Shown one piece after another: positions 1 to 18,561 of a DNA stretch of 64,000 nt. The first letter of the stretch is position 1; each line of letters starts with the position of its first letter. A program made the translations under genes and the position numbers. The stretch lies in NCBI GenBank assembly GCA_963822445.1, contig CAWGHO010000002.1, positions 416,001-480,000 on the forward strand. The letters run 5' to 3'. The DNA comes from an uncultured Acidobacteriota bacterium. Lineage in GTDB: Bacteria; Acidobacteriota; Thermoanaerobaculia; Gp7-AA8. The notes beneath the pieces are model-generated. The model was not told the origin of the DNA. It worked only from the letters and a program-made list of their open reading frames with translations, and ran no database searches.

Positions 1-48
1 GAACTGAATTGCTGTGAGCTGCCTTCTCGTGTGGAACGGTGGGCGGAC

Positions 49-1235
49 CTAGCCCACGTCTAGGAGTGACGGCGCGGACTCTTTCCCTACCCCGCCACGC
101 CGCCACTCCAAACTCGCCGCCGACGCTGCTCTTGTACGCGAGCACACCACTTCGGATCTTCTCGACGACGAGTTTCTTCTGACTGGCATTGCGCTCGTGA
201 TCGAGTGTGAGGGTGTGACCACGCGAAACCCGCGAGTTGCGGCGACCGCGTTCCGCAGGCGTTGCCCACCCTGCCCCTCCGTTCGCCGCAGCGTGTCCGC
301 GACGAGATGCGTGGATCGTACGAGCGCGGCGAATGCATCCGGGGTGGCACCGTAAAGGCGCGTGTACTCGTTGACGAATTTCGCCACGCCTGGAGCTGAA
401 TCGATGAGCTTCGGCGATTCCCATCCGTCGCCACCGAGGAGCGGCACGGTCAGCCCGAGGTCTTTCGCCTGAACGGCGATCTGACCGACGTCTGTGTAGT
501 AGCCCGGGACGAACACTGCCTCGGGCGTTGCTCGGCGGATCGCCGTCAGCTGGGCGCGGAATTCGGAGTCCCCGTTCGCATGGCTCGATCGCGTGGCGAT
601 TTGCCCTCCGTGCTGCGTGAACCGTTGCTCGAACTCCTTGGCAAGACCGCGTGAGCAGTCGCTTTTCACGTCGGTCAGCAACGCCACTCGCCGCAGACCG
701 AGCGTACGCGCTGCGCAGTGGGCGAGCGCGCGGCCCTGATCATCATCCGTGAAGCACACCCGGAAGATGTAATCGCCCTTCTTAGTCACCTCCGGGTTCG
801 TCGATGCGGGCGTGATCATCGGTACGCGATTACTCTGGCAGATCGGTGCGGGGGCGAGCGGCGCGGACGACGAGGCTTCGCCGATCACCGCCACGACGTT
901 GTCGCGTGAAATGAGCTTCGTCACGGCGTTTGCGGTGTCGTCGTGCTTCGACTGGTCGTCTCGGGTAATGACGCGCAGCCGTGCGCCGGCGACGCCGCCC
1001 CTTCGATTGATCTCATTGACCACCATCACGATGGCATTGTGAGACGACTGTTCGAACGTCGCCTGGGGCCGGTGAGCGAGCCGATTCGCCGATCAGAATC
1101 TCGCGCCGCGCCGCATTCTGCGCGCTGTCGGAGCCACGCGCAGAAGTTGCCGTAGCGCCCGGCCAGAGCCAGCAACACAATCGACGAGATGATGAACTGC
1201 ACGACGAAAGGAACACGATTGGATTTGTTTCGCAT
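49..1235 (-). pseudogene. Degraded branched-chain amino acid ABC transporter substrate-binding protein (LivJ/LivK family)
   Basis: ORF 49..1029 has EINRRGGVAG...DDQS, VVAVIGEASS, YIFRVCFTDDDQG, LLGGDGWESP. The signal peptide and the (I)GE/GSLTGP N-terminus lie in other frames (1026..1235, 1013..1324). There is an apparent deletion after WESPKLID, and the C-terminus reads as out of frame. Confidence 0.75.
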
Positions 1236-1979
1236 TTTCTATCTCCGTCTTCGCGTCTACCCGCCTGTCGAGGACGGTATTTGCCCGCTGATACGGAGCA
1301 ACTGATTTTCCGGAGGTTGAGCATTCGGACGTATGCGACGATATTGATCTGTAGTCCTGCTGATTCACATGCAGACGAACCTCACAGTTTTGTCGTCACG
1401 GGCGTCCGCGGGCGATGAAAACGCGTCCTGCACCGACCTCGGCACGCGGCTCGTGGCGGAAATCGGCGACATTAACCTGCAGCTGGTGACGTAGTACTGC
1501 ACCGCATCGGGGAAGGTGCGTCACCGGGGCAGGCCGTCGAACAGGCAGCTCGCTTCACCGTGCTTCATCTTGTCGACAAAGTGGACCGTTTGGTGCTCGT
1601 CCGCAAGGCGATCGAGCGCGGCGTTCGCGTCGCCGCGCGGTCGGGAGATATCGAAGAGATCATCGCCGTCGGGTTCAAAAGACCGATGCCATCGACCGCA
1701 ACATCGAAGCCGCTGAGGAACCTATCAGAAGAATCGCGCGGTTCATGGGCGACCTCTCGGTGATGCCTCAATGCCGACCTGAGTTCCCGCCGAACCGGTG
1801 CAAGGCGCCGAACTGCTGTTCACGTTCCGCCCGAAACTGCGGATTCTCCGGGATCGAAACATCGCCGCCTACGACGCCACACACGACCCCGATCTTCCTC
1901 TCCTGAACGTGCTGACCGCGAACTCGGATGCGCCGATCACCGTGGTAAGAACTGGCCGGCGGGTTTGAAGCGGTAACCC

Positions 1980-2381
1980 CTATTCACTTTTGTTCGCAGG
2001 ATCCCAGTTCTTCGGCTCCCATAGCTCGACCTTATTGCCTTCGGGATCCATCACCCAGGCGAACTTGCCGTTCTCGTGTTTCTCCGGCCCCTGGTGGATC
2101 TCGACGCCGCCGGCGCGCAGCTGCGCGAGCAGCGCGTCCATGTCGTCCACGCGGTAATTGATCATGAACGAGGAGTTGCTCGGCGCGAACCATTGACTGT
2201 CGCTCTTGGCGAGGCTCCACACCGTCAGGCCCTTGTCCTCGGCCGTGTCGTCGGGCCACTTCAGGATCGCGCCGCCCCACTCCTCGAGTGAGAGGCCGAG
2301 GTGCTTCTGGTACCAGTCCGCGAGGGACTTGGGATCGTTTGCCTTGAAGAAAATGCCGCCGATGCCGGTGATGCGCGCCAT
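1980..2381 (-). CDS. VOC/glyoxalase-bleomycin resistance family protein
   Basis: ARITGIGGIFFK, MINYRVDDMD, GKFAWVMDPEGNKVELWEP; GGAG RBS upstream. Confidence 0.9.
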   Translation of the reverse strand: MARITGIGGIFFKANDPKSLADWYQKHLGLSLEEWGGAILKWPDDTAEDKGLTVWSLAKSDSQWFAPSNSSFMINYRVDDMDALLAQLRAGGVEIHQGPEKHENGKFAWVMDPEGNKVELWEPKNWDPANKSE

Positions 2382-2489
2382 TCACGCTCCTTGAAGCAAC
2401 AGGATTCTGCGCGGCGACTATATCGGCGTTTGTCGTCAGTTGATGAAGTGATTGAGCTTGGTCTGTCACGGCAGGCGTGATCGGGAAAC

Positions 2490-4163
2490 TCATCGCCTCC
2501 GTTTCCCCAGGAGCCAGAGCTCAGGCCGCCCATTGAGAACCTTCCCGGCGAAATCCAGCTGGAACGTCTCTCCGCCTGTCGTGGACACGACGATGTCCCT
2601 TTTCGTGTCGTTATCGAAATCGATGACCTCGAGGCGCCGGATTCGGGCCGACCTCGGGACGACCACACCTGCCCACACACGCTCGAGCTTCGAGTCCAGC
2701 AAAGCGACGGTGGCATGAGGGCGATCGGTGCCGAAGGTCGCACCGGGCTTGTCGTCGATACCGGCAACGATGATTTTGCGGGTGTGCCGCGAGGTTGGTC
2801 GGTCGATGACCATGGACTGCAAGTGGCCCACGTGGTCATACGAAAGAAGGCGTTGACCGTCGGCGGCGTAGAGGGAGACGCGGGAGGCCGAGCTTCCATC
2901 ACTCCACAAGGCGACGATCTCGAGGCCCTGGTCCTGACGCGACAGATCCTGAACGAGGAACTGCCGCAAGGTCGTGTCCTGCTGCGCGGACCAGCGCCGC
3001 AGACCTACCCGGTCGAACACGGTGATCGTGTTCGCGCCGACGACGACTTCCTGACTGCCATCCGCATCGAGATCCGCAACCTCCGCGCGTGTCACGAGGC
3101 CATCGACGCTGTGTTGCCAGAGCCGTTTACCGTTCGCCGAGAATGCCGCGACGGTCGAGCCATCGGTCACGGCGCGTGCGACATTGCCGGGCGGAGGCGG
3201 GGGAGGAGGACCATGGCAGATCGATAGCGGCATGTTCTGAGAGTCGCCGTCGATGCTGACCTGGGTAGCGGCGCGAATCGATGGATTGCGATTCGCGAGA
3301 ATCCACCTCCGGACATAGCGTTCCACGTAGGGTTTCAGCGTTCCGATCGTAACGGCGCCGCGCGTCAACGAGGCCTTACAGCTCATCCCGTTGATCACGG
3401 CTTTCGTGAACACCCCATTGCCATCACCTTCGTATGCATATCCGCCTGCCGTGGCAGCCGAGAACACGATCTGTCCATGCACGCGTCCCATCCTGCCGAT
3501 CATCGGCGCCCTGCCGGCGAGTGAGCCGCGCACATCAGGGATGCGGTTGCGACAGGTGTCGACGAGAAACAGCGATCGTTCCGCGTCCGATTTGCCGGCA
3601 ATGTCCAACAGCCGCGGCATCTGCAAGGCCGTTTCCGGATATCGAAAAAGAGAGCTCGAACCGAGAATGTATTGAACCCCGTCCTTCGTGAAGCCGTGTG
3701 TGGCGATCGACACGATGAGAATTCCGCCGGGGCCGGCGACGGCCGACTGTTTTTGCAGCAGGTCCAGAATGTCACTCGGCCCCGCCGGCTCGATTCTCGC
3801 CCCCGCTCGGACGAGCTCGTCGAGACGTCTTTTCGATGCTTCCTTTCTGGGCCGCCCCGACAGGGAGAGCACCACGCGATCCGGCGGCACGAGCAGTACT
3901 CGTGGATCGAGCGAGAACATATAAGCGAGATCCACCGCGTCGTCCGCCGCATATCGGACTTCGAGTGCCGGATCATTCGTGAATTTCGGCACGCCGATGA
4001 ACAGCGCGGCGGATTGAGCCGGATTGAATTTCGCCGGCTCGACCGGCGCCGCCTCGGGCACGAGTCGAACGCCGCGAAACAATCTCATTGCCACAGGCGA
4101 GACTGCCGCGGTCGTGACCAGGAGTGCTCCCAGTGCGACAACGAGCGGCTTCCAAAGCTTCAT
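2490..4163 (-). CDS. Caspase-like (peptidase C14) protein with N-terminal signal/TM and C-terminal FG-GAP-like repeats
   Basis: ALFIGV, AADDAVDL, IVSIATHG (His), LFLVDTCRN (Cys), GNGVFTKAV. A poly-Pro linker precedes ADLDADGSQEVVVG and IDFDNDTKRDIVVS. ATG at 4163 overlaps the hxsC stop (ATGA). Confidence 0.8.
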   Translation of the reverse strand: MKLWKPLVVALGALLVTTAAVSPVAMRLFRGVRLVPEAAPVEPAKFNPAQSAALFIGVPKFTNDPALEVRYAADDAVDLAYMFSLDPRVLLVPPDRVVLSLSGRPRKEASKRRLDELVRAGARIEPAGPSDILDLLQKQSAVAGPGGILIVSIATHGFTKDGVQYILGSSSLFRYPETALQMPRLLDIAGKSDAERSLFLVDTCRNRIPDVRGSLAGRAPMIGRMGRVHGQIVFSAATAGGYAYEGDGNGVFTKAVINGMSCKASLTRGAVTIGTLKPYVERYVRRWILANRNPSIRAATQVSIDGDSQNMPLSICHGPPPPPPPGNVARAVTDGSTVAAFSANGKRLWQHSVDGLVTRAEVADLDADGSQEVVVGANTITVFDRVGLRRWSAQQDTTLRQFLVQDLSRQDQGLEIVALWSDGSSASRVSLYAADGQRLLSYDHVGHLQSMVIDRPTSRHTRKIIVAGIDDKPGATFGTDRPHATVALLDSKLERVWAGVVVPRSARIRRLEVIDFDNDTKRDIVVSTTGGETFQLDFAGKVLNGRPELWLLGKRRR

Positions 4164-5314
4164 GCGATCCCATTCCCGTCGGAATCCAGCGGATGGATGC
4201 GCGCACTGCGGATCTTCGTTCCGGATTGAAAGAACCCTCCACACCGCTCGATCACGCCGCAGCCGTTGCACTCCGGGAGATACACATTTTTCCAATCGGA
4301 GATCGATTTGCGCGCCAGCGGCCAGAGCCGACGATCGAGAACGCAGAGCTGGTGGTTGTAAATCGACACGTTCATCCCTGCATCACGGAAGACATCACTG
4401 GCCGCGAGGAGCTCGCGCTGATAGTCGGCCGGATCGATCCAAAGCTCATCGAGATTTCGATGTACCAGGCCGAACATCTCCAGCCCCATGAGGGCGACGT
4501 GACATGCGAAGGGGAAATTGCGCGCGATGAACGCGGCCAGTTGGGGCAAGCGCGGAATGGAACGCGCGTGCAGGACGATCCGAATCTCGACGCGGACGCG
4601 GTGACGATCGAGGTTCTGCAATCCGATCACGGTCTGCTCGAATGCACCGGGCGCTTGCACGATGTGATCGTGAAGAGAATCAACGTCCGCATAAAGAGGA
4701 ATGCCGAGAACGAGATCCGGGTGATCGATTCGTCCGAGCTTTTCGGCGAAATGCCGATAGAAGAACAGGCGGCCGTTCGTCAGCACGTGAAGAGCGGTCG
4801 AGGGCAGGCGCTCTTTGCAGCGCGCGACGAGCTCGAGGAAGCCATCCCGAAAAAGCGTTGGCTCTCCCCCCGTGATCCCGAGCTCTTCCGTCGTCGGATC
4901 GATCAGGTCGATGAGGCGCAGGTGTTCCGCCAGACGATCGGAGTCGTCGATCGCTTTCGGGGGCTGTGAGCACATCAGGCAGAGGCTGTTGCACTGTTCG
5001 GTGACGAGAATGAAATTGTGCGGGGATCCGCGGCGATAGAGCGTCCGCACGAAGCCGTTCGGATCGACGGCCACGACGTCGCCGTCATCGAGATAGTCGA
5101 GCTGATGGAGACCGCTCGCCGTCGGAATTGCGGAAACGGAGGGTGCTTCTCCGAGCGCGAGAACGCCGAGGTAGCCATCGGGGTGACAAGGCAAAGCGCC
5201 GCCGCTGGCGAGCAGCCACGCATCGCCGCGGCCGGACGGCAGCGGCGAGCGTGCGACGCGCCCGATCAAAGTTCGATCGACATTCGTCACCCGGGCGTTC
5301 GCATGCAGCCTCAT
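4160..5314 (-). CDS. hxsC: His-Xaa-Ser system radical SAM maturase HxsC
   Basis: NFILVTEQCNSLCLMCSQPP (CxxxCxxC), GITGGEPT, LTNGR, ARKSISDWKN, C-terminal CNGCGVIERCGGFF; ATG at 5314 overlaps the hxsB stop. Confidence 0.92.
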   Translation of the reverse strand: MRLHANARVTNVDRTLIGRVARSPLPSGRGDAWLLASGGALPCHPDGYLGVLALGEAPSVSAIPTASGLHQLDYLDDGDVVAVDPNGFVRTLYRRGSPHNFILVTEQCNSLCLMCSQPPKAIDDSDRLAEHLRLIDLIDPTTEELGITGGEPTLFRDGFLELVARCKERLPSTALHVLTNGRLFFYRHFAEKLGRIDHPDLVLGIPLYADVDSLHDHIVQAPGAFEQTVIGLQNLDRHRVRVEIRIVLHARSIPRLPQLAAFIARNFPFACHVALMGLEMFGLVHRNLDELWIDPADYQRELLAASDVFRDAGMNVSIYNHQLCVLDRRLWPLARKSISDWKNVYLPECNGCGVIERCGGFFQSGTKIRSARIHPLDSDGNGIA

Positions 5315-6756
5315 GCGACCTGCTCCCGCTGTAATGGCTCTTCGCGGATCCACGACCACAACACGCGTCGGGTGACCTCATCACGCTCGAGGAGCGAGAT
5401 CAGGTGTTTGATGATGGAGAAGTTCTTTTCGTGGAAATCGCTGGTGGGAATGACCGGCACGAGGTCGCCGGTGGTCGCATAGTGATGCACCGGATCGGCG
5501 CCGCACCAAGGCAGAAACGCACAATCGGAGCAGCCGGGAAACGATTCGGCAACCGACGCGGCAATGATCCTGCGGAGGGTCTCGCCTCCGAAGATCGCCT
5601 CGTACGAATCGCGATGGACGTTGCCGAGGCGGAAGCGCGTGTCGCCCATTGCTGCCAGCATGCGCGACTCGTCCGTGGGGTAGACGTCGCCATCATGGTT
5701 GTAGACGACGGCACCGATTCCGGCACCGGCGGGACTCTGCAGGTCGACGTAGCCGGTGGCGAACGGCGTCAGGATTCGCGTCAGGAGAAGCTGCGCATAG
5801 CTCTCGATCAGAAACGTGCCGTCGGCATTGAGTCGAATGATGTAGTCGAGCGCGCGGACATAAAACTCGAGGAACTCACGCATCGAGTAACCGGTCGTGC
5901 GCACGCTACGCAATGCGAAGCCGTAAGGGCTCAAAGGGCGCAGGAAAATCGACGAAAATCCGAGGCGGACGTATTCGTCGACGATTGCTTCCGGCGACTG
6001 GAGGGATGCACTGGTGGTCGTCATGAGCGCGGCAACGCGATCGTGACCGAGCACTTCCCGAGCGCGCCGGATTCCGTCGATCGTTCGCGCGTGGCTGTCG
6101 TTGCCGGGCCGGGGACGATTGGCATCATGCAGGGCCTGCGGTCCGTCGAGAGACGTCGACAGGAAGACGCCGTGCTCGCGGAAGAAATCCAGCATCTCTC
6201 CGTCGAGCAAGGCCAGGTTCGTCGTCACGACGAAATCGACGTCGCGGCCGGCCGCGTCCGCGCGCCTCCGGCCTTCCACCACGATCTGCCGGACGCGATC
6301 GAAGTGCAGCAGCGGCTCACCACCCTGCAGCTCGATCTTGAGCCGCGGCGCCGGCGAGCGAAACGCAAGGTCGAGCCCGCGCTCCGCGGTTTCCTCGCTC
6401 ATGTCGTAGCGCTTTTTGTCGACGCTCACCCGCGAGACCTGACAGTAGTGACACGAATGCTCGCAACGCAGCGACACGACGAAGATGTGCAGGCTCGTGA
6501 ACCCGTCGAGGAATGCCTTCTTCGTCCGATACTTCGCCGCCAGCAGCTCGAATGGCGCAAGACTGTTGCTGTCGAAGAGGAAGTGCTTGGCCTTCAGATC
6601 GAGATAGGCGTCCGAGTCCGGCGACAGGTCACGCTGGACGAACCGCGCGAGATCGTCCTTCGCCAGAAAGTGAAACTCCCCTGTTTCATTGACGACCAAC
6701 GTCCTTGTTTGATCGAAGCGCAGGAATCGGAAAGGCAAGAGACGATACGCGCTCAT
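5311..6756 (-). CDS. hxsB: His-Xaa-Ser system radical SAM/SPASM maturase HxsB
   Basis: YRLLPFRF N-terminus, TSLHIFVVSLRCEHSCHYCQVS, IELQGGEPLL, YVDLQSPAGAG, DESRML, CSDCAFLPWCGADPV. Confidence 0.93.
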   Translation of the reverse strand: MSAYRLLPFRFLRFDQTRTLVVNETGEFHFLAKDDLARFVQRDLSPDSDAYLDLKAKHFLFDSNSLAPFELLAAKYRTKKAFLDGFTSLHIFVVSLRCEHSCHYCQVSRVSVDKKRYDMSEETAERGLDLAFRSPAPRLKIELQGGEPLLHFDRVRQIVVEGRRRADAAGRDVDFVVTTNLALLDGEMLDFFREHGVFLSTSLDGPQALHDANRPRPGNDSHARTIDGIRRAREVLGHDRVAALMTTTSASLQSPEAIVDEYVRLGFSSIFLRPLSPYGFALRSVRTTGYSMREFLEFYVRALDYIIRLNADGTFLIESYAQLLLTRILTPFATGYVDLQSPAGAGIGAVVYNHDGDVYPTDESRMLAAMGDTRFRLGNVHRDSYEAIFGGETLRRIIAASVAESFPGCSDCAFLPWCGADPVHHYATTGDLVPVIPTSDFHEKNFSIIKHLISLLERDEVTRRVLWSWIREEPLQREQVA

Positions 6757-7088
6757 CCAACGATTCCTCGGACATCGACGTACTGGTCGCTCTCGATGTC
6801 GCTCCGATCGAGTAAATCTGCCTCGCAGAACGCCTGTGCCACGAGCAGTTCGCGAATGACTCGGGTCTCGTCCGCAACGATCGCGCGCAGGCGAAAATCC
6901 AGAAGCGCATTCGAAAACTGTCCGGCCAGATCGCGCAGGGAATCGCGCTCGTCGCGGGCCGCAAACTCGATCGCCAAACGACCCTCGCCGGCATGGCGAG
7001 GCTGCACGTGGCAGCGTGCCGTGAATGCATGACAGGCCCGCAACACCAGCTCGAGCGGATAGATCGCCAGATCGACGGTGATGGTCAC
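6753..7088 (-). CDS. hxsD: His-Xaa-Ser system protein HxsD
   Basis: 111 aa from a GTG overlapping the hxsA stop. IYPLELVLRAC and FSNALLDFRLRAIVADETRVIRELLVAQAF match the HxsD-type LxDxxLR...T..IR..I motif; lies between hxsA and hxsB. Confidence 0.85.
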   Translation of the reverse strand: MTITVDLAIYPLELVLRACHAFTARCHVQPRHAGEGRLAIEFAARDERDSLRDLAGQFSNALLDFRLRAIVADETRVIRELLVAQAFCEADLLDRSDIESDQYVDVRGIVG

Positions 7089-8125
7089 GGCTGACGCTCC
7101 ACGGTCACGTGGTCGAACGCCGCGGCCTCGGTGGCCGGCGCGGGGGTCACGGTGCCGGCGCTCAACGCGATGCGCATTTCCGTCAACGGGATGCCTGCTG
7201 TTTCGACGTACTGCGGAAACCAATTCCTCCCGTCGGTGCTCGTTTCCCACACCGCTACCGGGGCGGCCGCAGCAACCTTGCTCGTGCGCAGGCGAAGAAA
7301 CCGATGTGCCGTCGCGCTATAGGCGAGCTTCTTCGAGGCCACGCGACCCTTCGTGTGGCTTTCGATGGAGAGATGACCGCTCTCGACTCGGAAGCCGATC
7401 CAGTTCCCGGAATCGATCGCCGCCGCGAAGATTGTCACCGCCCCTCGTGCCGGACGCCGGAGCTCCACAGCAACACTGGACGTTTTCAAATCGAACGATT
7501 GCGTCGAGACATACCCGCTGAAATGCGAGCCTCGCTGCAGCACCGGCGGCGCAACTCTCAATACACTCCCCATCTGCTCTGTCGTCACGTTCGGATCGAA
7601 CGTCTCGAGAGGCGTTGCGAGGACGCCGATGGTCCACCGCTCCGCGACCCGCTCGGTGGTCGCGAATTCCTCACTCAGGAGCGTCTCCGCTTTCGGTTCA
7701 GGAGGCCGCGGTTCGACGACTTTCGGGCGCGGCGGTTCCGGGGCGGGCGTAGTGGGCGTGCTCCGAGGCGGCGCGGGCGACGAGGAAAAGTGCGAGGAGT
7801 GTGCGCCCGAATAATGCGAGCTGGAGCTGTGCGATCGATGGGAGCTGTGGGACCGATGAGAACTATGCGAGCGATGTTGCGCAAAGCGGATGACGAACGA
7901 GCTCTCCGCGCGCTCGAGCACGTACCTGCCCTTGAATTTCCGCACAGTGGCCTCAGGCGCCAGGGTCGGCGCCACAGGAACGCGCGGCTGCGCACCGGCG
8001 CCAGCGCCGGCCTGCGTGGCCATTCCAAGGAGGCTCGCGCTCAATGCCACGCGTGCCGTGAGCCGGCGCAACGGAAGCACATCGAGCAGTTTCCATAGAG
8101 CGTTCTTCCAATCCGAGTCCGACAT
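7085..8125 (-). CDS. hxsA: His-Xaa-Ser repeat protein (HxsA-like) with Pro-rich linker and C-terminal beta-sandwich/lectin-like domain
   Basis: FAQHRSHSSHRSHSSHRSHSSSSHYSGAHSSHFSS (9 HxS triplets), hydrophobic N-terminal segment, PAPPRSTPTTPAPEPP linker, ~200-aa beta-rich C-terminal domain; AAGGGAG RBS. Confidence 0.85.
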   Translation of the reverse strand: MSDSDWKNALWKLLDVLPLRRLTARVALSASLLGMATQAGAGAGAQPRVPVAPTLAPEATVRKFKGRYVLERAESSFVIRFAQHRSHSSHRSHSSHRSHSSSSHYSGAHSSHFSSSPAPPRSTPTTPAPEPPRPKVVEPRPPEPKAETLLSEEFATTERVAERWTIGVLATPLETFDPNVTTEQMGSVLRVAPPVLQRGSHFSGYVSTQSFDLKTSSVAVELRRPARGAVTIFAAAIDSGNWIGFRVESGHLSIESHTKGRVASKKLAYSATAHRFLRLRTSKVAAAAPVAVWETSTDGRNWFPQYVETAGIPLTEMRIALSAGTVTPAPATEAAAFDHVTVERQP

Positions 8126-8135
8126 ATGGCTCCCT

Positions 8136-9983
8136 TCACTGCGCGCGTCGTCGTTCGCTGCGCTCGATCGCAGCGACGTCGCGCGCCATTGCCACGCGCA
8201 ATGCGATCAACGGCGGCGTTCCCCAAACCTCCGCCGTCCGTTCCCATGAAACGAGGATCTCTTCGGCCGTGAGCTCGCTTCGAAAGCGACTTCGGAGATC
8301 CCGCTCCCGTCTCGCCGACGCGGCGGCACTCAGACCGGCGGCGTGGATGGCATCCGTCACCGTTTGCCATTCGGAAGATGAAACGCCGAGGCTCTGCGCC
8401 GCGATGACCGAGTCGGCGGCTTCGGACCAATGCTTTCGCGCAAGTTTTTGCCGCGCCAGCGGAATGTGGACGGCGGCCGAAACGGCGGCACTTTCCGGTT
8501 TTCCGCGTGCACGGGCGCTGAGCAGGCGGAGCGCGTCAGAGCCATCGGTCCAGCGTTGCGCGGACGCCGCTTCACGCGCCTTGGTGAGGATCAGTTGATC
8601 GATCGCATCCGTCGCCTCTCCGTACTGCGGAAGCTCGCGTGGAATCTGAGCGAGAGCGGTCCGCGCCGCCTCGAGCTCGGTGGCCTGCCGAATTCGGGCG
8701 AGCCGCAAATCGGCCCAGGAACGCCGCCCTGCACTGCCGCCCAGCGATTGCAGCTCCGACTCGGCATCGTCGAGCTTTCCCGCCGCGATCAGCCCATCGG
8801 CGCGACCGACGCGCGGAAGAGCGGCGAACGCAAATGCGATGGCGACGATGAGGGTCACCGTGATGGCGATGAACCACTTCCGCGTTTCCAGTCGCGACGC
8901 CGTCCAATCCGCGCTCGCGCGGTAAATCGAAGCTAAAGCGGCGCCGAACGCTACGAGACTGGCGAGCGTCGCCATGCTCCAGAAAAATGGGCCGCGCGCG
9001 AGTGATACCAGCACGATCACGCCGTAGATGGCGACCAGGACCAGAAGCAGAGCACGCAGGTTCGCGGCACGAATCACGAACAGAGCAGCCGCGGCCTCCC
9101 GCGGCGCGGAAAGGCGGCGCCCCGCGAACGCGACGGAGTCCTTCGCGGCGCCCACGCGATAGTGCACGGTATGCGTCGGTACGCGCGCAATTCGGAGCCT
9201 CTGCCGCTGCACTCGCTCACCGGACATCAATACGGGCTCGAGCACCTCCAGCCATTGCAACGGGATGTCGCCGAGATCGCTTGCGGCGAGGACATGCGGA
9301 CGTTCGAGATCGGCGATCACATGTGCGTCGCGCTCGATGATTTCGTTCACGGGGTTCTCCATCCACCCGAAACGCGACGCGAGCTGCTGCGGATGAACCG
9401 TCGGGATCGAGCGACGCCACCATTCGAGCTCGAGCCAGCGCTGCACGCGCCCCTCGCCCGCACAGATCGCGCAGACCGCCACGCCGCGGCGGCACTCCGC
9501 GCAATCGACAGCACCCTTGCCACGACACGCCGTGCAATTGAGCAGACGCCACGCGCCGTTCGCGGTGTAGCCATACGCCTTGCGTTCCCCGCCGCATGCA
9601 CCGCAGGTTCGTTTTCCGCTTCCGTCGCATGCTGCGCAACGGGTTTTCCCTGCACCCGCGCATGGATCGCAAAGAGCGACGTGATCACTCTGCTTTCGAA
9701 GCGAGGGCGCGTCGGCCACCCATGCGTCGACTTCCTCGGCAACGATCGGAGGCGGAAGTGTGATGCGAGCCCTGCCGGCGGCCGGTACCGATTTCCAGAC
9801 CACACGTTGTCCCCGCAAGTCCGTCTCGATCAGACCGATGTAATCGTGCGTCACCGCCACGTGCTCGAGGAGCGAACGCACGTCGCGCGGAGCGCCGTCC
9901 TGCAGCGATGCCCAGTGAACGAAGGCATCGCCTGCCATCTGATTTTCGCCGGCGGACAGGGGCGTCATCCCTGGCATAGACAC
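8136..9983 (-). CDS. Membrane protein with DnaJ-type CxxCxGxG zinc-finger repeats, ~3 TM helices and a helical (TPR-like) C-terminus
   Basis: CDPCAGAG, CAACDGSG, CGACGG, CTACRGKG, CAECRRG, CAICAGEG; hydrophobic segments in the middle third. Start may be ATG 9977. Confidence 0.7.
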   Translation of the reverse strand: MSMPGMTPLSAGENQMAGDAFVHWASLQDGAPRDVRSLLEHVAVTHDYIGLIETDLRGQRVVWKSVPAAGRARITLPPPIVAEEVDAWVADAPSLRKQSDHVALCDPCAGAGKTRCAACDGSGKRTCGACGGERKAYGYTANGAWRLLNCTACRGKGAVDCAECRRGVAVCAICAGEGRVQRWLELEWWRRSIPTVHPQQLASRFGWMENPVNEIIERDAHVIADLERPHVLAASDLGDIPLQWLEVLEPVLMSGERVQRQRLRIARVPTHTVHYRVGAAKDSVAFAGRRLSAPREAAAALFVIRAANLRALLLVLVAIYGVIVLVSLARGPFFWSMATLASLVAFGAALASIYRASADWTASRLETRKWFIAITVTLIVAIAFAFAALPRVGRADGLIAAGKLDDAESELQSLGGSAGRRSWADLRLARIRQATELEAARTALAQIPRELPQYGEATDAIDQLILTKAREAASAQRWTDGSDALRLLSARARGKPESAAVSAAVHIPLARQKLARKHWSEAADSVIAAQSLGVSSSEWQTVTDAIHAAGLSAAASARRERDLRSRFRSELTAEEILVSWERTAEVWGTPPLIALRVAMARDVAAIERSERRRAQ

Positions 9984-10010
9984 GGTTCCGATGGAATCGG
10001 CACCGTCGGA

Positions 10011-11229
10011 TCAGCGGCCGAATTTGAGGACCGGCGTCGTCCCCTCGGGCTCGCAGGTCTGTCGCTCCGCCAGTTCGACGCGGCCGGCGTCGTAGCGCAA
10101 ATTGGTCACGTTCCAGATGCGAAATGCGCAATCGGGGGAGGATTGAACGTCCGCACCTGACATCCCCGGGTGTAGACCTGCACCATTGCACCGGCGTCAG
10201 CGATCGTGCCGCTGCCTTGATAGACGTGAATGAAGTAGCGGAAGTCTCCCACCGCGTCGCCGCGCACCGTGAGTGTCTCGTAACGCCCGGGGTAGACCTC
10301 ATCGACATCGAGCCGGGCGAAGGTCCGACCGTTGGGCAACACGCCTTCCTTGTTCCGGAAATAGACAGTGTCGGCTGCCGGGAAGCGCGTTGCGTTCGAC
10401 TGCCAGAAATGCGTGTCGAGGTCACGTGGATCGTTGCGCCAGCCGAGAACGAAACGGGCGACTTCATCGTCCTTGAGGTCTGGAGAAAGAGGCAACGCCG
10501 CACGTGTAATCTTCCCGGGGCGCACTTCGAATTCACGTTCCGAGGGGCAGTACCCGGGCGCCTGCGCGGAGAAGCGATGCCGTCCCGGTGGCAAGTCGAC
10601 TGTGACGACGCGTCGCGGACTCGACGACAGAGAACGCGTACGATCCTTCACGATCGCGTCGACCGGCTCGGCCGCTCGCATGGCATTGAACGTTGCGATT
10701 TCCAGTCTGCCGAACGTCGGTTTCAGATCGACAGGAACGCGAACGCTCTGCAGCGCGGCCGCCTGCACCCGTGCGGTCCGCGGGTGGTAGCCGTCGAGAC
10801 GCGCCGTATAGCTGCCAGACCCGCTGTTGATGCGGCCGAGACGCGCAATGAACAGACCGCCGATGTGAGTGATCGGCACCGACATCGCCCGTCCGGTGGC
10901 GTCGTCCGTCACAGTGAGGCGGCGGGACGTGAGGTCGGCATCGAATACGCTGTCGCGCACCGCGAGATCGAGATACGCGGGCGGCGTCAGAAACCAGGGG
11001 ACGCTCAACAGGCCGAGCCCAGCCACGATCATCGAGCAGAGGAACGTGAGCGGTTTGCGCTCGTTCGGAATGGCTGCCATCGCAAATCCTAGCGTCGCCC
11101 CGATGACGGCGTCGAAGCGGCCGGCTTCACGAGCACGCGATGCGTCCACTGCAGGTCGATGAACGCAAAAAGCGTCAGCGCCAAACCAAAGAAGAAGAGC
11201 AGGAAGAGAAGGCGGGCCGCTCGGTTCAT
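10011..11229 (-). pseudogene. Membrane-anchored PEGA/carboxypeptidase-regulatory-like + YfaP (DUF2135)-like protein with two -1 frameshifts (pseudogene or sequencing error)
   Basis: The N-terminus MNRAARLLFLLFFFGLALTLFAF (ATG 11229) shifts frame near 11120 into ORF 10106..11368 (VLGWRNDPRDLDTH, ARLDVDE, FRYFIHVY, VQVY). A second shift at a G5 run near 10135 continues PDCAFRIWNV...LKFGR to a stop at 10011. Confidence 0.6.
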
Positions 11230-11231
11230 GA

Positions 11232-14200
11232 TCAGGCAACCTCCAACGGACTCTCGCACACCGAGCAACGTCCCCGCGGCTCGACGTTCGAATAGCAGAT
11301 CGAGCATTGCACGAGCGCCGCGATGGGAACGGGCATGGACTCGACGACGGTCGCCGTTCGCGACTCATCTTCCTGAGCCGCGACGCTGAGAATCGGCCCC
11401 TCGGCGATCGGCATCACTGGCCCGACCTTCGGGTCATACCCGCAATTGGGGCACGGATACTGATCCTCGTAACCACTCCAGGTGAAGCACTGCGGACAAT
11501 CGATCGTCTCGTCCTCACGCATCCGCAGGCCGCATTTCCAGCAGAGCTCGAGATCGTCGGGTACGCGCGATTCCTGGCAATGCGGACAGGCGACATGCGC
11601 GGCGATCATCTTCTGGCAATGGGTGCAGTGCACGGCGCGCCGATCGATCGGTTTCGCACACGACGGACAAGGACGATCGCCGAATTGCTTCTCGACCACG
11701 GCGACCGGAGCAGCAGGACGAAGAGGAGGCGTCACCACCTGCTCCCTGGCCGCGCTCTTGTCGATCCTGGTGATGTCGAGCGCGAAGATGTCGCGCCAGG
11801 CGATGGCCGTATGCACGACGGCGTCTTCCGTCCGCGTTGCGAACTTGCCCGCGGTCTTTGTATATGGCGCGAGCACATCGCGGTACTCCTCGTAGCTCAG
11901 GTCTTGCGCGAGATCCTTGTTAGTGAGCGTCCTGTATTGAGTGACGAACTGTTTCTGCTCGTCTGCCTCGCCCACGATCTGCGCCAGCCGCATGCGCGCT
12001 TGCGCCAGCACGGCATGCTCGGGCGAATACTGCATCATCGTCAGGTCGGGGATGCCGCTCTGATCGAGCTGGCGCGGCGGATAGACCTTCTTCAGGTAGA
12101 AGTCGAGGAGCAGCCGATAGACGGCGAGCTTTTTCTGTTCGCGCAGCATCTGGATGGTCTTCTCGATCTTCTGCAATAGGTACCGGCGATGCGTCAGGTG
12201 CTCGCTCCGCCGGTCGCGGTAGAGAAAGTCGACGGCATGGGCTTCACCGCCGAGGTTCACGTCTTCAGCAATCAGGTCGGTGAGATGCTGGTAGCTGAAG
12301 CGGAACGCCAACTGGTCTCCGTCCGACGGTAGAGGGTGCGTGGTCAGCAGTCCGAGCAGCCGTGCCAGCACGAACGCCGTCAGCGAATCGGCATACTGCT
12401 TCGCTTCGCCTGCCTGTTTCGGGATCAGATCCGCGAACTGAAAGCGGTTCTTGTCGGTGTGCAGCTCTTCTTTCTCGGCGAACGCGTTGTATGCCGCCCG
12501 CAGGCCGTGAGGGGCGGTGACGGAGCTGGGATAGAAGGCCGGAATGCCCGCCAGCTCGTGGTAGAAGACGATCGTGCCGCGGTGCTGCTCGCCGATGTTC
12601 TGATAGCTCGGCATGGTGTCACCGGGTGAACGGGCGCCGTCGACGAGGTGCTTGAATTCCGCGACTTTCTGCACGTTTCCGGCGTCGTCGAACCCGATCA
12701 GGCAGGGGCGCTGATCGGTGCTCACCGGCGCCAGCCCGGTGTGCTCCAGGCCGTGATCGCTCGGTGCGACCCACACCTTCGACAGGCGGTAGGCCTGCCG
12801 CACCATGTCGGTCCGCTCCCGCACGCTGAAACGGTTGCCGTCGAAGAGCATCGTCAAAGCGTCCGGTTGTCTCGGCTTCCGGACGATGAAGTCGCGGCAC
12901 TTGGACAGGATTTGTTCTTCGACTGTCTCCGAGGGCGTGCGCTGAATTTTCGCCAGCGCAGCGGTCACGCCGTCGACCTCGAAAACTTCGGCGAGGATCT
13001 GGCTGCCGACCATTTTCAGCGTCTGCGCTTCCGCGGCGGGCTCCCCGATCCAGGTCCGATACCACTCCTCCACGTCGCCATCGCGAAACAGGGTCAGCGT
13101 GAGCTCGGACTTCTCCGGTTTCGAGAAATAGGCATCCTTCTTCTGCAGATGCTCCTTGACGCGAGCGAAGCCAACCAGCAGCTCGTAATAACGGCCGAGC
13201 AGCCCGTCGCCGCCCTGGTGGTCGGGACCGAGGAACCGGTCGAGCTCATCGCAGATCTGCCGGCCGCGTTTGGCGATCTGCTTGCCGACACGCGCATGGA
13301 AATGGTTGTAGAAGACGCCGCGATCCTCGTCGCCATCGTCGGCCACGAGCTTTTCGTAATCGCGCTTGAGATCAGGCGAACGGAAGAGTAACTGTTCCTC
13401 GTGACGGGCCATGTCCAACTGCAACTGGTCGAGCGCGTAGGCGTAGTACTGCACGCGGTCACGCCATTGCGGAAGGCGTTCGTCGAAATAGTGCATGTAG
13501 CGGAAGTTCTCGTTGCGGAGAAGCGCCTTGAGCTCGCGGAGAAGCGAGAGCGTGTAATTGACGCCGTATTGAGGGTTGTCGGAGAGCTCGGCCGCTTTCG
13601 CTTCGATCCCGGTTTTCACCCGTTCCAGATACGTGCGCATGTTCGTGTCGAGGTGGCGCACGCCCATTCCCCACTCGTCGGGATTCTCGGAGTCTTCCCT
13701 GGCGAAGAACTGGTCGAGCTCCGCGCGGCGCTGGCTGAGAAGTGACGCTTTCTGACCGTTCGGCGTGTCCGCGAGCTCTGCGCGCAGGCTCTGAGCTTTC
13801 TGCCAGAGGTGACTCTCGAACGTGCGGCCACCGCCGGCATCGAAGACCGTCAGCGCATCTTCGATGTCGACATGCTCGATGATGCCCCCGCCGTCGCGGC
13901 GCTCATAACTGCCCTGCGCGCACTGCACGCGCTCGTCGGTCAGGAATTTGGTGAAGAGATGCTCGAGAGGATCGTCGACGATGCTCTTCTGCCAGTAATC
14001 GAGAATCTGCGAGGCCAGACGGCTCGCGCAGGCGGCCTGCACGCGCTCCGTCGGAAAGGAGATCGTGGCCAGGCCGAAGGAGCCGAAACGACAAGGGAAG
14101 GTATCGCCGACGATGTCTTTGTGCGTCGCGTCGCGGTCCTGGCGCAGCGCGACGTTGAGGAAGTTGTGCGTGTATACATTGAGATTGAACTGTTCGAGGT

Positions 14201-15583: not shown

Positions 15584-17293
15584 TCAGCGGCCGATCCTTG
15601 GAGGGCGGCCGGGCGGTGGAGCAGTTCGGGACATTGGCGGCGGTGGCGGCGGTCCGGCACGACTGGTCACGGCACCGGGCCTTGGTTGCTTCTGCACGGC
15701 ACGCACGCCTTTGGCTTTGATCGACAATCGCCTGGTCGGACCGCCAGTGAATTTCACGTCCCACATCTCACCGTCGGCGGCAGGCACGATGGCGAATGCA
15801 GGATTGCCGTTTGCCGGATGAAACCCATAGCTGCTGCCGAGACCTCGACACAGGCGCCCGAGCAGCTTGCCTTCGTACGAAACGTTGTGGGTCCCAAGGC
15901 GGCGGAGCGCGGTGATGGTCTCGGCGCCGGCGATCGTGATGTGGAACGTCTGCTTGCGGGACAGGACGAAGGCCGCGGCGACCGCGAGAGCGCCGAGAAT
16001 CGCCAGGATCGCCAGCAGGACCGCCGTGCGGCTGGAGCCCGTTCGCAATGCAAAGCTGACCGGCACCACGCTCGGACGGATACCCGACAGCGATGTCACG
16101 TCCTGAAACGAGAAGATCGACGACGCGTGATCGATCCCGAAAATACCGGCCATCTGCTGCCGCTGGAGACGCACACGGACGTCGGTCAGCGTCATGCGCA
16201 CATTTCCGGTGTAGCGGACGGTCGCACCGCTCCATGCCAGCCGAAGCCATTCGGTCACGCCACTGGGCGTGAATGAAACTGGCTGATTGGAACGAAGCTG
16301 CGCGCGGATGCGCTTCGCGCCGTTGGGCGGGATCTGTTCGCGAAGGTCGTCGCCGGCCGAGTCGAACACCTGCGGTGCGAGCGATTTCGCGCCGAGGTCG
16401 CGCTGGGCCCATGTCTCCGGAACGAACGGGGAATCGACGGCCAGGTCGTAATGCGCGGCGGTGACGGCGTGCTGGGTGAGACGGCTCCGGATCTCGCCAT
16501 CGAGCTCGAGCCCGACGCCGCGCCCTTCCTTGAACATTCCTTTGTCGCGGTCGGCGAGCACGAGCTGTAGATCGGCGCGAAGCGTGACTGGCTCAATGGC
16601 GAGGTTCTTCAGCTTGAGATGCTCTTGGCCCGGGAAGAGGTCGCGAAACCTGGCGTCGTACTCAGCGAGCCTTTCATTCGGGATCTCGGACGCCGAGACG
16701 AGGATGCCGTACACCGCAAGTGCGGAGCTCTGGCCGTTCTCGTCGAACGAATGCTTGTAGAGATGGACGGAGCGGATCTGGATCGACTGCGCCAGTGTTT
16801 CGAAAAAGCGCTGCACACCGGCGTCCGGCTCGCCGGCGGTGGTCTCGACGATGTTGTCGGTGATCAGCCAGACGATGCCGGTGTAGTCACGGGTGAACTC
16901 CAGCAGGGTCTCGGTGAGATAGGTACTGTTGCCGGTTCGCGCCGGAAAGTTCGCAATCGCGGTCTCGGTTCGAAATTCGCGCGGCGGCACAACGGGATGC
17001 ACTTCGCGAATGTCGGCCGGGGTGAAGGCGCCATTGGATGTGAACGTCCACATGCCGATGGTGTCGGCGTCGATGCCCGATTGGCGCCGAATGAATCCAT
17101 CGAGCCATGGCCCGAATTGCGGCGATCGATGAAAGAAATGCACGCCGAGCTGCTCGCGCGTGCGGCGTTCCGGCGAGCCGGGCGGACGGTAACCGGGATA
17201 CATGCTGCCGGAGTTGTCATAGAGGATGCGCACCGGCAACGCCTGCGCCGCGGTAGCGATCAGACAGAACGCGAGCGCGCAGAACGTCTTCAC
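15584..17293 (-). CDS. Exported vWA-like domain protein with single TM and Pro-rich cytoplasmic tail
   Basis: GTG start overlapping the upstream stop; signal peptide KTFCALAFCLIATAAQA; ILYDNSGSM (MIDAS DxSxS), STYL, WLITDN; TM AVLLAILAILGALAVAAAFVL; PPPPPP tail. Confidence 0.7.
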   Translation of the reverse strand: MKTFCALAFCLIATAAQALPVRILYDNSGSMYPGYRPPGSPERRTREQLGVHFFHRSPQFGPWLDGFIRRQSGIDADTIGMWTFTSNGAFTPADIREVHPVVPPREFRTETAIANFPARTGNSTYLTETLLEFTRDYTGIVWLITDNIVETTAGEPDAGVQRFFETLAQSIQIRSVHLYKHSFDENGQSSALAVYGILVSASEIPNERLAEYDARFRDLFPGQEHLKLKNLAIEPVTLRADLQLVLADRDKGMFKEGRGVGLELDGEIRSRLTQHAVTAAHYDLAVDSPFVPETWAQRDLGAKSLAPQVFDSAGDDLREQIPPNGAKRIRAQLRSNQPVSFTPSGVTEWLRLAWSGATVRYTGNVRMTLTDVRVRLQRQQMAGIFGIDHASSIFSFQDVTSLSGIRPSVVPVSFALRTGSSRTAVLLAILAILGALAVAAAFVLSRKQTFHITIAGAETITALRRLGTHNVSYEGKLLGRLCRGLGSSYGFHPANGNPAFAIVPAADGEMWDVKFTGGPTRRLSIKAKGVRAVQKQPRPGAVTSRAGPPPPPPMSRTAPPPGRPPRIGR

Positions 17294-18552: not shown

Positions 18553-18561
18553 ACTCGGTCC

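Follow-up and report, generated by a model that had tools for sequence, protein, structure and literature searches.

A His-Xaa-Ser radical SAM cassette with a predicted lectin-fold effector in an uncultured acidobacterium: a proposed deep variant of the HXS anti-phage system

Does a His-Xaa-Ser (HXS) cassette carried by an uncultured acidobacterium belong to the anti-phage system of that name described in Escherichia coli, and which of the genes around it belong with it? The cassette, hxsA-hxsD-hxsB-hxsC, lies at positions 4160–8125 on the minus strand of a 64,000-nucleotide (nt) stretch of DNA, referred to below as the window (GenBank assembly GCA_963822445.1, contig CAWGHO010000002.1, positions 416,001–480,000; Acidobacteriota, Thermoanaerobaculia, Gp7-AA8). 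The G+C content of the window is approximately 62–66%, and a run of minus-strand genes extending from about 39.6 kb down to 2.5 kb encloses the cassette. Our analysis favors, by a modest degree, the interpretation that the locus is an intact, translationally coupled and deeply divergent variant of the E. coli HXS anti-phage system in a Thermoanaerobaculia-like acidobacterium. Confidence is held at this level because the radical S-adenosylmethionine (SAM) enzymes share 31–37% identity with those that have been tested and because the effector carries a different domain; a defensive function would be assigned to the cassette by homology.

Examination of the open reading frames (ORFs) and of each junction bore out the gene set, the A-D-B-C order and the 4-nt overlaps that had been proposed in an earlier note made from the sequence alone. 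The gene hxsA (7085–8125, minus strand) starts with ATG and encodes 346 amino acids (aa), whereas hxsD (6753–7088, minus; 111 aa) starts with a GTG that overlaps the hxsA stop codon; hxsB (5311–6756, minus) and hxsC (4160–5314, minus) encode radical SAM enzymes of 481 and 384 aa, respectively. The limits of the interval are exact, with 4160 being the last base of the hxsC stop codon and 8125 the A of the hxsA ATG. The junctions read GTGA at hxsA/hxsD and ATGA at both hxsD/hxsB and hxsB/hxsC, and a fourth overlap, also ATGA, joins the hxsC stop to the start of a caspase-like gene. The hxsA ATG is located behind AGGGAG-N5 and 10 nt beyond the stop codon of the upstream gene, designated ZnF615. 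With four successive GTGA/ATGA overlaps and a 10-nt gap to the upstream gene, the locus reads as a single transcription-translation unit. A promoter and terminator scan of positions 1–12000 yielded no promoter-like sites and nine terminator-like sites against 8.7 expected, and was uninformative on the operon limits.

Comparison with the NCBIfam hidden Markov models supported the assignment to the His-Xaa-Ser system, since HxsB, HxsC and HxsD all exceeded the curated cut-offs. HxsB scored 599.7 bits against TIGR03978 (cut-off 370; E = 3.5e-180), covering profile positions 1–466 of 466, HxsC scored 383.1 bits against TIGR03977 (cut-off 267.9; E = 6.2e-115), and HxsD scored 60.2 bits against TIGR03976 (cut-off 50; E = 2e-16); both radical SAM enzymes were thus placed in their own families and not in unrelated ones. 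The two cysteine motifs pointed out earlier are present, CEHSCHYC (CX3CX2C) at residues 98–105 of HxsB (C98, C102 and C105) and CNSLCLMC at residues 108–115 of HxsC (C108, C112 and C115). The only other cysteines of HxsB are those of CSDCAFLPWC at 409–418 (CX2CX5C; C409, C412 and C418), and HxsC possesses CNGCGVIERC at 349–358 (C349, C352 and C358). HxsB matches Pfam Radical_SAM and marginally passes Pfam SPASM (21.7 bits versus a cut-off of 21.5), so that "SPASM-like" is a fair label for its C-terminus, though what is left is a three-Cys remnant. Counterparts of all the Cys motifs reported to have been mutated in E. coli are found in HxsB and HxsC here (PMC13128918). The HxsD motifs have diverged (IYP versus LYW, and ALLDFRLRA versus LLNDYxLRE), but the Asp and Arg reported to have been mutated in E. 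coli are retained (PMC13128918). The cassette is almost certainly a genuine member of the HXS family.

In the literature that we searched, only Li et al. (Nat Commun, 2026; PMC13128918) and its preprint characterize HXS, and the names HxsA2, HxsA3, HxsA4 and HxsC4 are not used. According to that report, a four-gene operon of E. coli protects against 110 of 113 coliphages. Neither abortive infection nor impaired adsorption is involved; the operon stops the entry of phage DNA via a periplasmic HxsA that is matured by the radical SAM enzymes, and the four genes are all that defense needs. E. coli HxsA is described as combining five HxS repeats with a signal peptide and a peptidoglycan-binding domain; its periplasmic location is needed, and mutation of the peptidoglycan-binding domain abolished defense (PMC13128918). 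Its N-terminal cleavage requires HxsB, HxsC and HxsD together with their Cys and LYW/LLNDYxLRE motifs, and HxsC pulls down HxsD. A +8 Da change was mapped to SHRSS, the last repeat, and was not measurable in the hxsB, hxsC and hxsD mutants, while mature periplasmic HxsA, a protein of residues ~48–214, binds DNA (PMC13128918). The authors present HXS as the first defense that stops phage DNA at the envelope and the first with a radical-SAM-modified protein effector, and they leave unresolved how the radical chemistry works, how HxsA is exported and whether further host factors take part (PMC13128918). The earlier note had held both the modification chemistry and the biological role of this gene set to be uncharacterized; the latter no longer applies, given the anti-phage role of the E. 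coli system, whereas the former stands in part. What kind of system this is was therefore already known from the NCBIfam models and the 2026 paper (PMC13128918).

The canonical locus chosen for comparison was that of the Klebsiella conjugative plasmid NZ_CP020072.1 (L081), in which the genes run hxsD-hxsB-hxsC-hxsA, with an HxsA of 211 aa. The window shares with the E. coli/Klebsiella type the paired radical SAM enzymes with CX3CX2C and a C-terminal Cys cluster, the small HxsD, an HxsA made up of an N-terminal export-type region, tandem HxS repeats and a C-terminal domain, and a single operon of joined or overlapping genes in which D-B-C are contiguous. HxsB of the window is 31.5% identical to that of Klebsiella and HxsC 37% over 295 aa, whereas HxsD and HxsA gave no BLASTP alignment. 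The gene order is A-D-B-C as opposed to D-B-C-A, and HxsA has 346 aa and nine HxS triplets as opposed to 211 aa and five. A predicted concanavalin-A-like (ConA-like) domain on a proline-rich stalk takes the place of PG_binding_1. Finally, the window has two extra linked genes and an acidobacterial host, in contrast to the HXS systems surveyed by Li et al., of which 99.7% were reported to come from Pseudomonadota, 99.6% to be arranged as D-B-C-A and over 99.8% to consist of four genes (PMC13128918).

HxsA of the window is not a canonical HxsA. Its scores of 22.7 bits against TIGR03979 (cut-off 121.65) and 20.4 bits against the HxsA3 model (cut-off 65) fell short of the cut-offs and arose from the repeat alone. 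Thirteen related long HxsA proteins were likewise below every HxsA cut-off, the best scores being 49.6 and 41.2 bits. A search of 5.8 billion clustered proteins returned 87 relatives at E<=1e-30, all of the same length and layout and none with a Pfam domain, and those among them that are named belong to Thermoanaerobaculia or to Acidobacteria metagenome-assembled genomes; in the same search, canonical PG_binding_1 HxsA proteins surfaced only at E values of 2e-7 or weaker.

Five segments can be distinguished in HxsA, and an alignment of 44 HxsA-type sequences (A1) was used to examine their conservation. Residues 1–45 (7991–8125, minus) comprise an amphipathic helix and a weakly hydrophobic stretch ending in AGAGAGA, which together resemble a signal peptide or signal anchor. 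RVALSAGL is conserved in this N-terminal region, and AlphaFold2 (AF2) placed low-confidence helices at 3–16 and 21–36. As to a possible Tat signal, the RR at residues 20–21 lacks conservation among the remoter sequences of A1. Residues 46–83 (7877–7990, minus) form a pre-repeat segment with the pattern QPRVPV..PE..VRK..GKYVLKR..FAQ that is conserved in A1, L70 being invariant; it is a candidate recognition region. Residues 23–47 of E. coli HxsA, which lie ahead of the repeats, are reported to be required (PMC13128918). The array itself, at residues 84–114 (7784–7876, minus), contains nine H-x-S triplets (HRSHSSHRSHSSHRSHSSSSHYSGAHSSHFS), within which H84, S86, H87, S89, H90, S95 and H96 are invariant in A1. 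It is followed by a proline-rich linker at residues 115–146 (7688–7783, minus) that varies in length across A1, and by a C-terminal domain at residues 147–346 (7088–7687, minus), for which AF2 and Foldseek indicated a β-sandwich of the concanavalin-A-like lectin/glucanase fold.

This domain was identified by fold comparison alone because the sequence searches, with Pfam at E<=1 and with A1 as a profile against the PDB, gave nothing but noise. With A1 as input, AF2 modeled the C-terminal domain at a predicted local distance difference test (pLDDT) score of 94–98, except for one block at 89. Over residues ~21–120 the score was 39–50, with the N-terminal helix higher, and it climbed to 65 and then 86 at residues 121–140. 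The top match of Foldseek in the PDB was the GH16 lichenase 3i4i (E = 4.7e-7; template modeling (TM) score normalized to the target, 0.63), and the other matches included GH43 accessory domains, the ERGIC-53 lectin and the carbohydrate-binding module of a phage Dit protein. The model thus confidently predicts a ConA-like fold. GH16 enzymes carry the catalytic string E-x-D-x-x-E. Since that string is absent from the sequence and no such Glu pair occurs in the conserved columns of A1, a GH16 glycosidase was rejected and the domain was read as a binding module. Searching 1.84 billion representatives with the C-terminal domain (phmmer) brought up 737 relatives at E<=1e-3, of which 235 reached E<=1e-10. 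When 20 large relatives were scanned with Pfam, 16 had matches at E<=1e-5 and four had none; 11 of the 16 contained PKD, fn3, He_PIG, PA14, Big, Calx-beta or Kelch/galactose-oxidase-type modules, and three had weak DUF1349 matches. Modules of the PKD, fn3, He_PIG and PA14 type typify secreted or surface proteins.

A quite different explanation is a pathway for a ribosomally synthesized and post-translationally modified peptide (RiPP), in which HxsA would be the precursor and the HxS segment would be cut out and released as a modified peptide. The next-best NCBIfam matches of HxsB are peptide maturases of the PapB, SCIFF and QhpD types, although far below their own cut-offs (PapB, 116 bits versus 340), a protease gene follows hxsC, and surveys are reported to place HxsB among peptide-modifying radical SAM enzymes (PMC9062424). 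HxsB resembles PapB, the SCIFF maturase ScfB, QhpD and anSME in its radical SAM core, its C-terminal Fe-S region and its ribosomal polypeptide substrate; unlike them, it has three C-terminal Cys only, and the substrate is a full-size domain protein. HxsA is not a short leader-core precursor but a protein of 346 aa in which a confidently folded 200-aa domain follows the repeats, NCBIfam and Pfam detected no bacteriocin-type exporter or peptidase in the unit, and the mature product in E. coli is described as a protein, residues ~48–214 (PMC13128918). We rejected the RiPP pathway as the main explanation and regard it as highly improbable.

The HxsB alignment (A2) was scanned over one genome per GTDB species to place the cassette among its relatives, and 596 of the 601 pattern matches were confirmed; locus counts given here refer to the best 80 of these 596 (L001–L080). 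Pseudomonadota account for 29 of the 80 loci, Acidobacteriota for 24, Myxococcota for 10 and Nitrospirota for 5, the others being spread over nine further groups; the HxsD-B-C core spans at least 12 named phyla. An HxsD gene is located directly upstream of hxsB in 78 loci, the two misses having almost no upstream sequence. A search for ORFs carrying four or more HxS repeats succeeded in 75 loci, and 73 of these have the ORF upstream of hxsB and on its strand; therefore, A-D-B-C is the rule in the HxsB subfamily to which the window belongs. Eight loci (L017, L022, L037, L039, L046, L061, L062 and L074) have two HxS-repeat genes, a duplication of the effector gene that is arranged in tandem upstream of hxsD, save in L037, which has one on either side of the cassette.

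HxsA of the ConA type was found in 14 of the 80 loci, seven from Thermoanaerobaculia, four from Blastocatellia/Pyrinomonadaceae, two from other Acidobacteriota and one without a phylum. In an HxsB tree of 81 rows (IQ-TREE quick search, LG+G4; Shimodaira-Hasegawa-like approximate likelihood-ratio support only; rooted at the midpoint for display), a single acidobacterial clade of 18 rows (support 91) took in every one of the 15 ConA-type rows, the window included, and the window fell inside a clade of eight rows (support 98). Nested in the ConA-type clade are L010 (8917–9300) and L013 (8886–9296), whose short HxsA proteins of 127–136 aa have no C-terminal domain, so the domain has been lost or swapped within the clade.

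Most HxS proteins of the 80 loci are 85–130 aa in length, and 25 of the 83 ORFs pass the HxsA2 model while none passes HxsA, HxsA3 or HxsA4. The HxsA2-type cassettes (NF038296; Cupriavidus, Pseudomonas, Methylophilus, Nitrospira and others) share with the window the HxsB subfamily, at 46–57% identity, and the A-D-B-C order. They differ in that HxsA2 is ~85–125 aa long and ends right after the repeats, no long HxS ORF passing the HxsA2 model, and in having no ConA-like domain, ZnF615 or caspase. In Myxococcota (Sorangium, Polyangium and Kofleriaceae), HxsA also bears a C-terminal domain of β-sandwich type, but it is PEGA-like and not ConA-like; PF08308 scored 14.7–21.4 bits on six of these proteins against a cut-off of 20.8, which two of the six pass. 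The HxsA proteins in question (L036, L042, L044, L049, L067 and L076) measure 168–275 aa, that of L036 being 472 aa from the first start. HxsA is therefore modular, because an export-type N-terminus and a modified repeat array are joined to C-terminal domains that differ between lineages: PG_binding_1 in the canonical type, PEGA-like in Myxococcota, none in HxsA2 and, by fold prediction, ConA-like in the window.

Several observations bear on the mobility of the cassette. HxsB homologues occur on 409 plasmid records, 316 of them from Klebsiella and 325 conjugative. Two phage records also have one: that of Leptospira phage LE1, at 46% identity, and an unannotated 7.6-kb "Bacteriophage sp.", at 38.7%. 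In the Klebsiella plasmid example, hxs is flanked by insertion sequence (IS) elements and lies next to catA1. The G+C content at third codon positions (GC3) of the module is ~0.72–0.90 versus ~0.84–0.95 in the flanks in L002 (6615–12576), L006 (5812–11339) and L012 (8245–12549), with L006 at 0.72–0.77 versus 0.84–0.93 in the surrounding genes, which suggests recent horizontal acquisition in these three loci. The ZnF615-hxsADBC unit is set between two-component, SLT and PLD-like genes in L002, between tilS-ftsH and radA in L006, and next to an IS transposase in L003. Taken together, the varied surroundings, the lower GC3 and the plasmid and phage carriage show the module behaving as a unit that moves with its five or six genes, and such mobility is consistent with a defense module.

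Mobility also bears on another explanation of HxsA, as an exported His-rich envelope protein that captures or buffers a metal (Ni, Zn or Cu) or adheres to polysaccharide, with the radical SAM enzymes making a metal-binding or cross-linked site. Nine His within 31 residues and a lectin-like domain of the kind found in large PKD/fn3-type multidomain proteins would suit such a role, as would the fact that defense in this HxsA subfamily is argued from homology to enzymes of a distant, tested type. Behavior like that of a mobile island speaks for defense instead, no metal transporter or regulator is linked to the cassette in the eight annotated loci, and the sole experimental data reported for the family concern phage defense and DNA binding by mature HxsA (PMC13128918). 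We consider a metal or adhesion role unlikely, and prefer the anti-phage interpretation.

Two neighboring genes belong to the local unit, the first being ZnF615 (8136–9983, minus). Its product comprises a β-rich domain with an inserted zinc finger of four Cys pairs, three transmembrane segments and a TPR-like helical C-terminal domain. It had no Pfam, NCBIfam or PADLOC match; 52 homologues besides itself were found, all unnamed, and in the ESM Atlas the closest cluster is a family without a name, mostly of Myxococcota (score 0.94). The database copy (P0241) has 613 aa, so the start may lie two codons in. In a 31-row alignment (A3), 12 Cys are invariant, and AF2 run on A3 gave a pLDDT of 90.3, with the zinc finger at residues 101–170, hydrophobic helices at 300–329, 337–362 and 367–387, and an all-helical C-terminal half. 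No PDB structure matched the full-length fold at E<=1e-3. The helical half resembles BamD (E = 9.8e-3), a lead at the level of the domain only, and the zinc finger is similar to those of DnaJ type in DnaJA2, DnaJA3 and BSD2 (TM score 0.66, 32% identity over 59 columns). A DnaJ protein was rejected, as the sequence contains neither a J-domain nor an HPD motif. Lys/Arg counts and the positive-inside rule would put the zinc-finger side in the cytoplasm and the helical side outside it. A complex prediction for ZnF615 (1–295) with HxsA (1–146) scored 0.00, a value that counts neither for nor against binding.

ZnF615 stands beside hxs in 12 of the 80 loci and in two phyla. It immediately precedes hxsA in each of the six window-clade loci that reach that far (L001, L002, L003, L005, L006 and L027), the contigs of L004 and L034 ending before its position. 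Six Myxococcota loci (L036, L042, L044, L049, L067 and L076) likewise have a ZnF615-family protein of 730–850 aa with the same layout of zinc finger, transmembrane segments and helical C-terminus beside hxs. They differ from the window in that the ZnF gene is often on the opposite strand, as in Sorangium and Polyangium, in that HxsB belongs to a distant clade, and in having no caspase. Since the acidobacterial and myxococcal sets are far apart in the HxsB tree, the association recurs across a large distance, whether through an old linkage with losses or through repeated capture.

The second gene, casp557 (2490–4163, minus), whose ATG overlaps the hxsC stop, is translationally coupled to the cassette in the window. 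It encodes an N-terminal hydrophobic anchor (a strongly hydrophobic segment at residues 3–29), a caspase-like domain with the dyad His in THG155 and Cys in DTC202, and an FG-GAP/PQQ-like β-propeller, seen as weak FG-GAP/PQQ_2 matches. Against NF047832, "caspase, EACC1-associated type", it scored 37.6 bits (cut-off 140). A caspase gene directly follows hxsC in L001, L003, L004, L027 and the window.

Beyond these neighbors, minus-strand genes continue with short gaps or overlaps from 39579 to 2490, ~37 kb in all. The ~31 kb at 8136–39579 (minus) encode two CHAT proteins, a vWA protein, a Ser/Thr kinase, Hsp70, a GrpE-like protein, Tubulin_2 and several proteins without a family, and the same-strand block holds two caspases. 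Upstream of the cassette, the same strand carries genes for proteins of 420 aa, 1316 aa (Tubulin_2) and 611 aa, a zinc-ribbon protein and a GrpE-like protein, a 475-aa gene, genes for a 944-aa Hsp70, two unknown proteins, a Ser/Thr kinase, a vWA protein and a coiled-coil protein, and genes for a TPR-CHAT protein, a caspase-DUF4384 protein, another unknown protein and a second CHAT protein. Pfam scored Tubulin_2 at 210 bits and HSP70 at 113.8 bits; the Tubulin_2 protein has C-terminal double zinc ribbons and the Hsp70 an N-terminal Ig-like region. At the edge of the operon, a periplasmic-binding-protein ORF at 49–1029 (minus) matches only positions 27–230 of the 343-position Peripla_BP_6 profile and has an unrelated-looking end, which may reflect a frameshift or a truncation.

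Kaur et al. (eLife, 2020; PMC7159879) describe conflict systems that combine tubulin and HSP70. The operon surrounding the cassette is like them in bearing Tubulin_2, Hsp70, a GrpE-like protein, vWA, kinase, caspase and CHAT on one strand, and differs in that the TRAFAC GTPase of those systems (PMC7159879) was not found: Pfam detected no GTPase in the large operon, and a Walker-A pattern gave one dubious match, in a CHAT protein. The ATG of the 475-aa gene (19512–20939, minus) overlaps the Hsp70 stop (ATGA), and the first residues of its product include Asp-x-Gly-Gly, which recalls the phosphate-1 motif of actin and Hsp70; the product may correspond to the partner that Kaur et al. describe as an "HSP70 domain without peptide-binding domain" (PMC7159879).

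Could the whole ~37-kb block be one machine, with the cassette as its effector or sensor arm and HxsA facing the envelope? The shared strand and the short gaps or overlaps throughout 39579–2490 would fit this, and the order Tubulin_2-p420-ZnF615-hxsADBC-caspase is syntenic in L001 and L027, L027 also keeping the end of the 611-aa gene. Moreover, Kaur et al. report, besides the tubulin and HSP70 systems, another conflict system in which a radical SAM enzyme likely modifies a peptide effector (PMC7159879). Yet the tubulin (Tub1316) and 420-aa genes accompany hxs in only two of the 80 loci, L001 and L027, in which HxsB is ~80% identical to that of the window, so that shared ancestry may account for the synteny. 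In addition, the neighbors of ZnF615-hxsADBC in L002 and L006 are two-component, SLT, PLD, FtsH and RadA genes, and four genes are reported to suffice in E. coli (PMC13128918). Homologues of casp737, p379 and CHAT1202 lie 1–9 kb from hxsC in L012 and a CHAT gene lies 2 kb away in L005; because such genes recur near hxs there, a functional tie was kept as a rival explanation, although in both loci they are on the opposite strand. L001, the closest complete relative, has more such genes downstream of its hxs-caspase genes (17125–21443), namely a further Tubulin_2 gene, a vWA gene and a second caspase, the last on the opposite strand; at least two tubulin-type conflict loci therefore lie side by side there. 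We judge the single-machine explanation to be a doubtful one: the large operon is a neighboring conflict-type system and not a constant partner of hxs, and the place of hxs within it looks like defense-island clustering in one lineage. The unusual context that had been remarked on in the earlier note consequently divides in two, as ZnF615 and the caspase-propeller are recurring partners whereas the larger Hsp70/tubulin/CHAT operon is seen with hxs in L001 and L027 alone, the module being surrounded by unrelated genes in L002, L005 and L006.

A number of results weigh against reading the locus as a working HXS defense. Enzymes at 31.5% and 37% identity and an HxsD and HxsA that do not align mean that function is transferred from E. 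coli over a long distance. None of the four HxsA models of NCBIfam recognizes HxsA (cut-offs of 121.65 for TIGR03979, 48 for HxsA2, 65 for HxsA3 and 55 for HxsA4), and Pfam detected no peptidoglycan-binding domain in this protein even at E<=1. Export is probable at best, given that the hydrophobic stretch at ~27–45 behind a charged 26-residue N-region is weak, no 19-aa window having a Kyte-Doolittle mean above 1.5. Binding of a glycan or another envelope ligand by the C-terminal domain is suggested by its predicted fold class and the company of domains in which its relatives are found, at identities of 12–15% to the top-ranked GH16-type structures and 7–16% across the list. PADLOC (2023 library, which predates HXS) matched no defense model in 13 operon proteins beyond weak pVip (viperin) matches of ~29 bits to the radical SAM cores. 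ZnF615 is absent from seven ConA-type loci (L007, L008, L009, L011, L012, L014 and L070), of which L007 and L008 have only ~1–2 kb upstream of hxsA, and is therefore not obligatory; the caspase is absent from L002, L005 and L006, where the flanks are long enough to show it, and is therefore a lineage-specific addition.

If the anti-phage interpretation is correct, the locus might operate as follows. By homology, cytoplasmic HxsB and HxsC, together with HxsD, would introduce a covalent modification into the His-x-Ser array of HxsA that clears the protein for processing. HxsA would then be exported, and its ConA-like β-sandwich on the proline-rich stalk may hold it on an envelope glycan or other envelope ligand. 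By analogy with E. coli, phage DNA on its way in could be stopped in the periplasm or envelope by the modified array, which is basic and rich in His. ZnF615 is proposed to escort domain-bearing HxsA proteins or to couple their maturation and export, and the signal-anchored caspase-propeller may either process HxsA outside the cytoplasm or serve as a second effector. More tentatively, we suggest that HXS extends beyond four genes in Acidobacteriota and Myxococcota, with ZnF615 handing the matured domain-bearing HxsA across the membrane and, in the lineage of the window, a periplasmic caspase adding a proteolytic step of activation or execution; this extension is a possibility that we put forward with well under even confidence.

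Relative to the literature that we searched, the new elements are an HxsA of ConA type that the curated models do not recognize, the ZnF615 family of Acidobacteriota and Myxococcota, and a coupled, putatively periplasmic caspase. The effector of the family emerges as modular, with the same modified His-x-Ser array borne on at least four C-terminal designs, and this suggests that surveys based on HxsA undercount HXS. ZnF615 and the caspase are natural candidates for the export and processing steps of HxsA, and they offer testable handles on its maturation, export and anchoring. If the extension beyond four genes holds, the locus would represent a new HXS subtype with a lectin-anchored effector and would supply what the E. 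coli study reportedly lacks, an additional host factor that serves the maturation and export of HxsA (PMC13128918).

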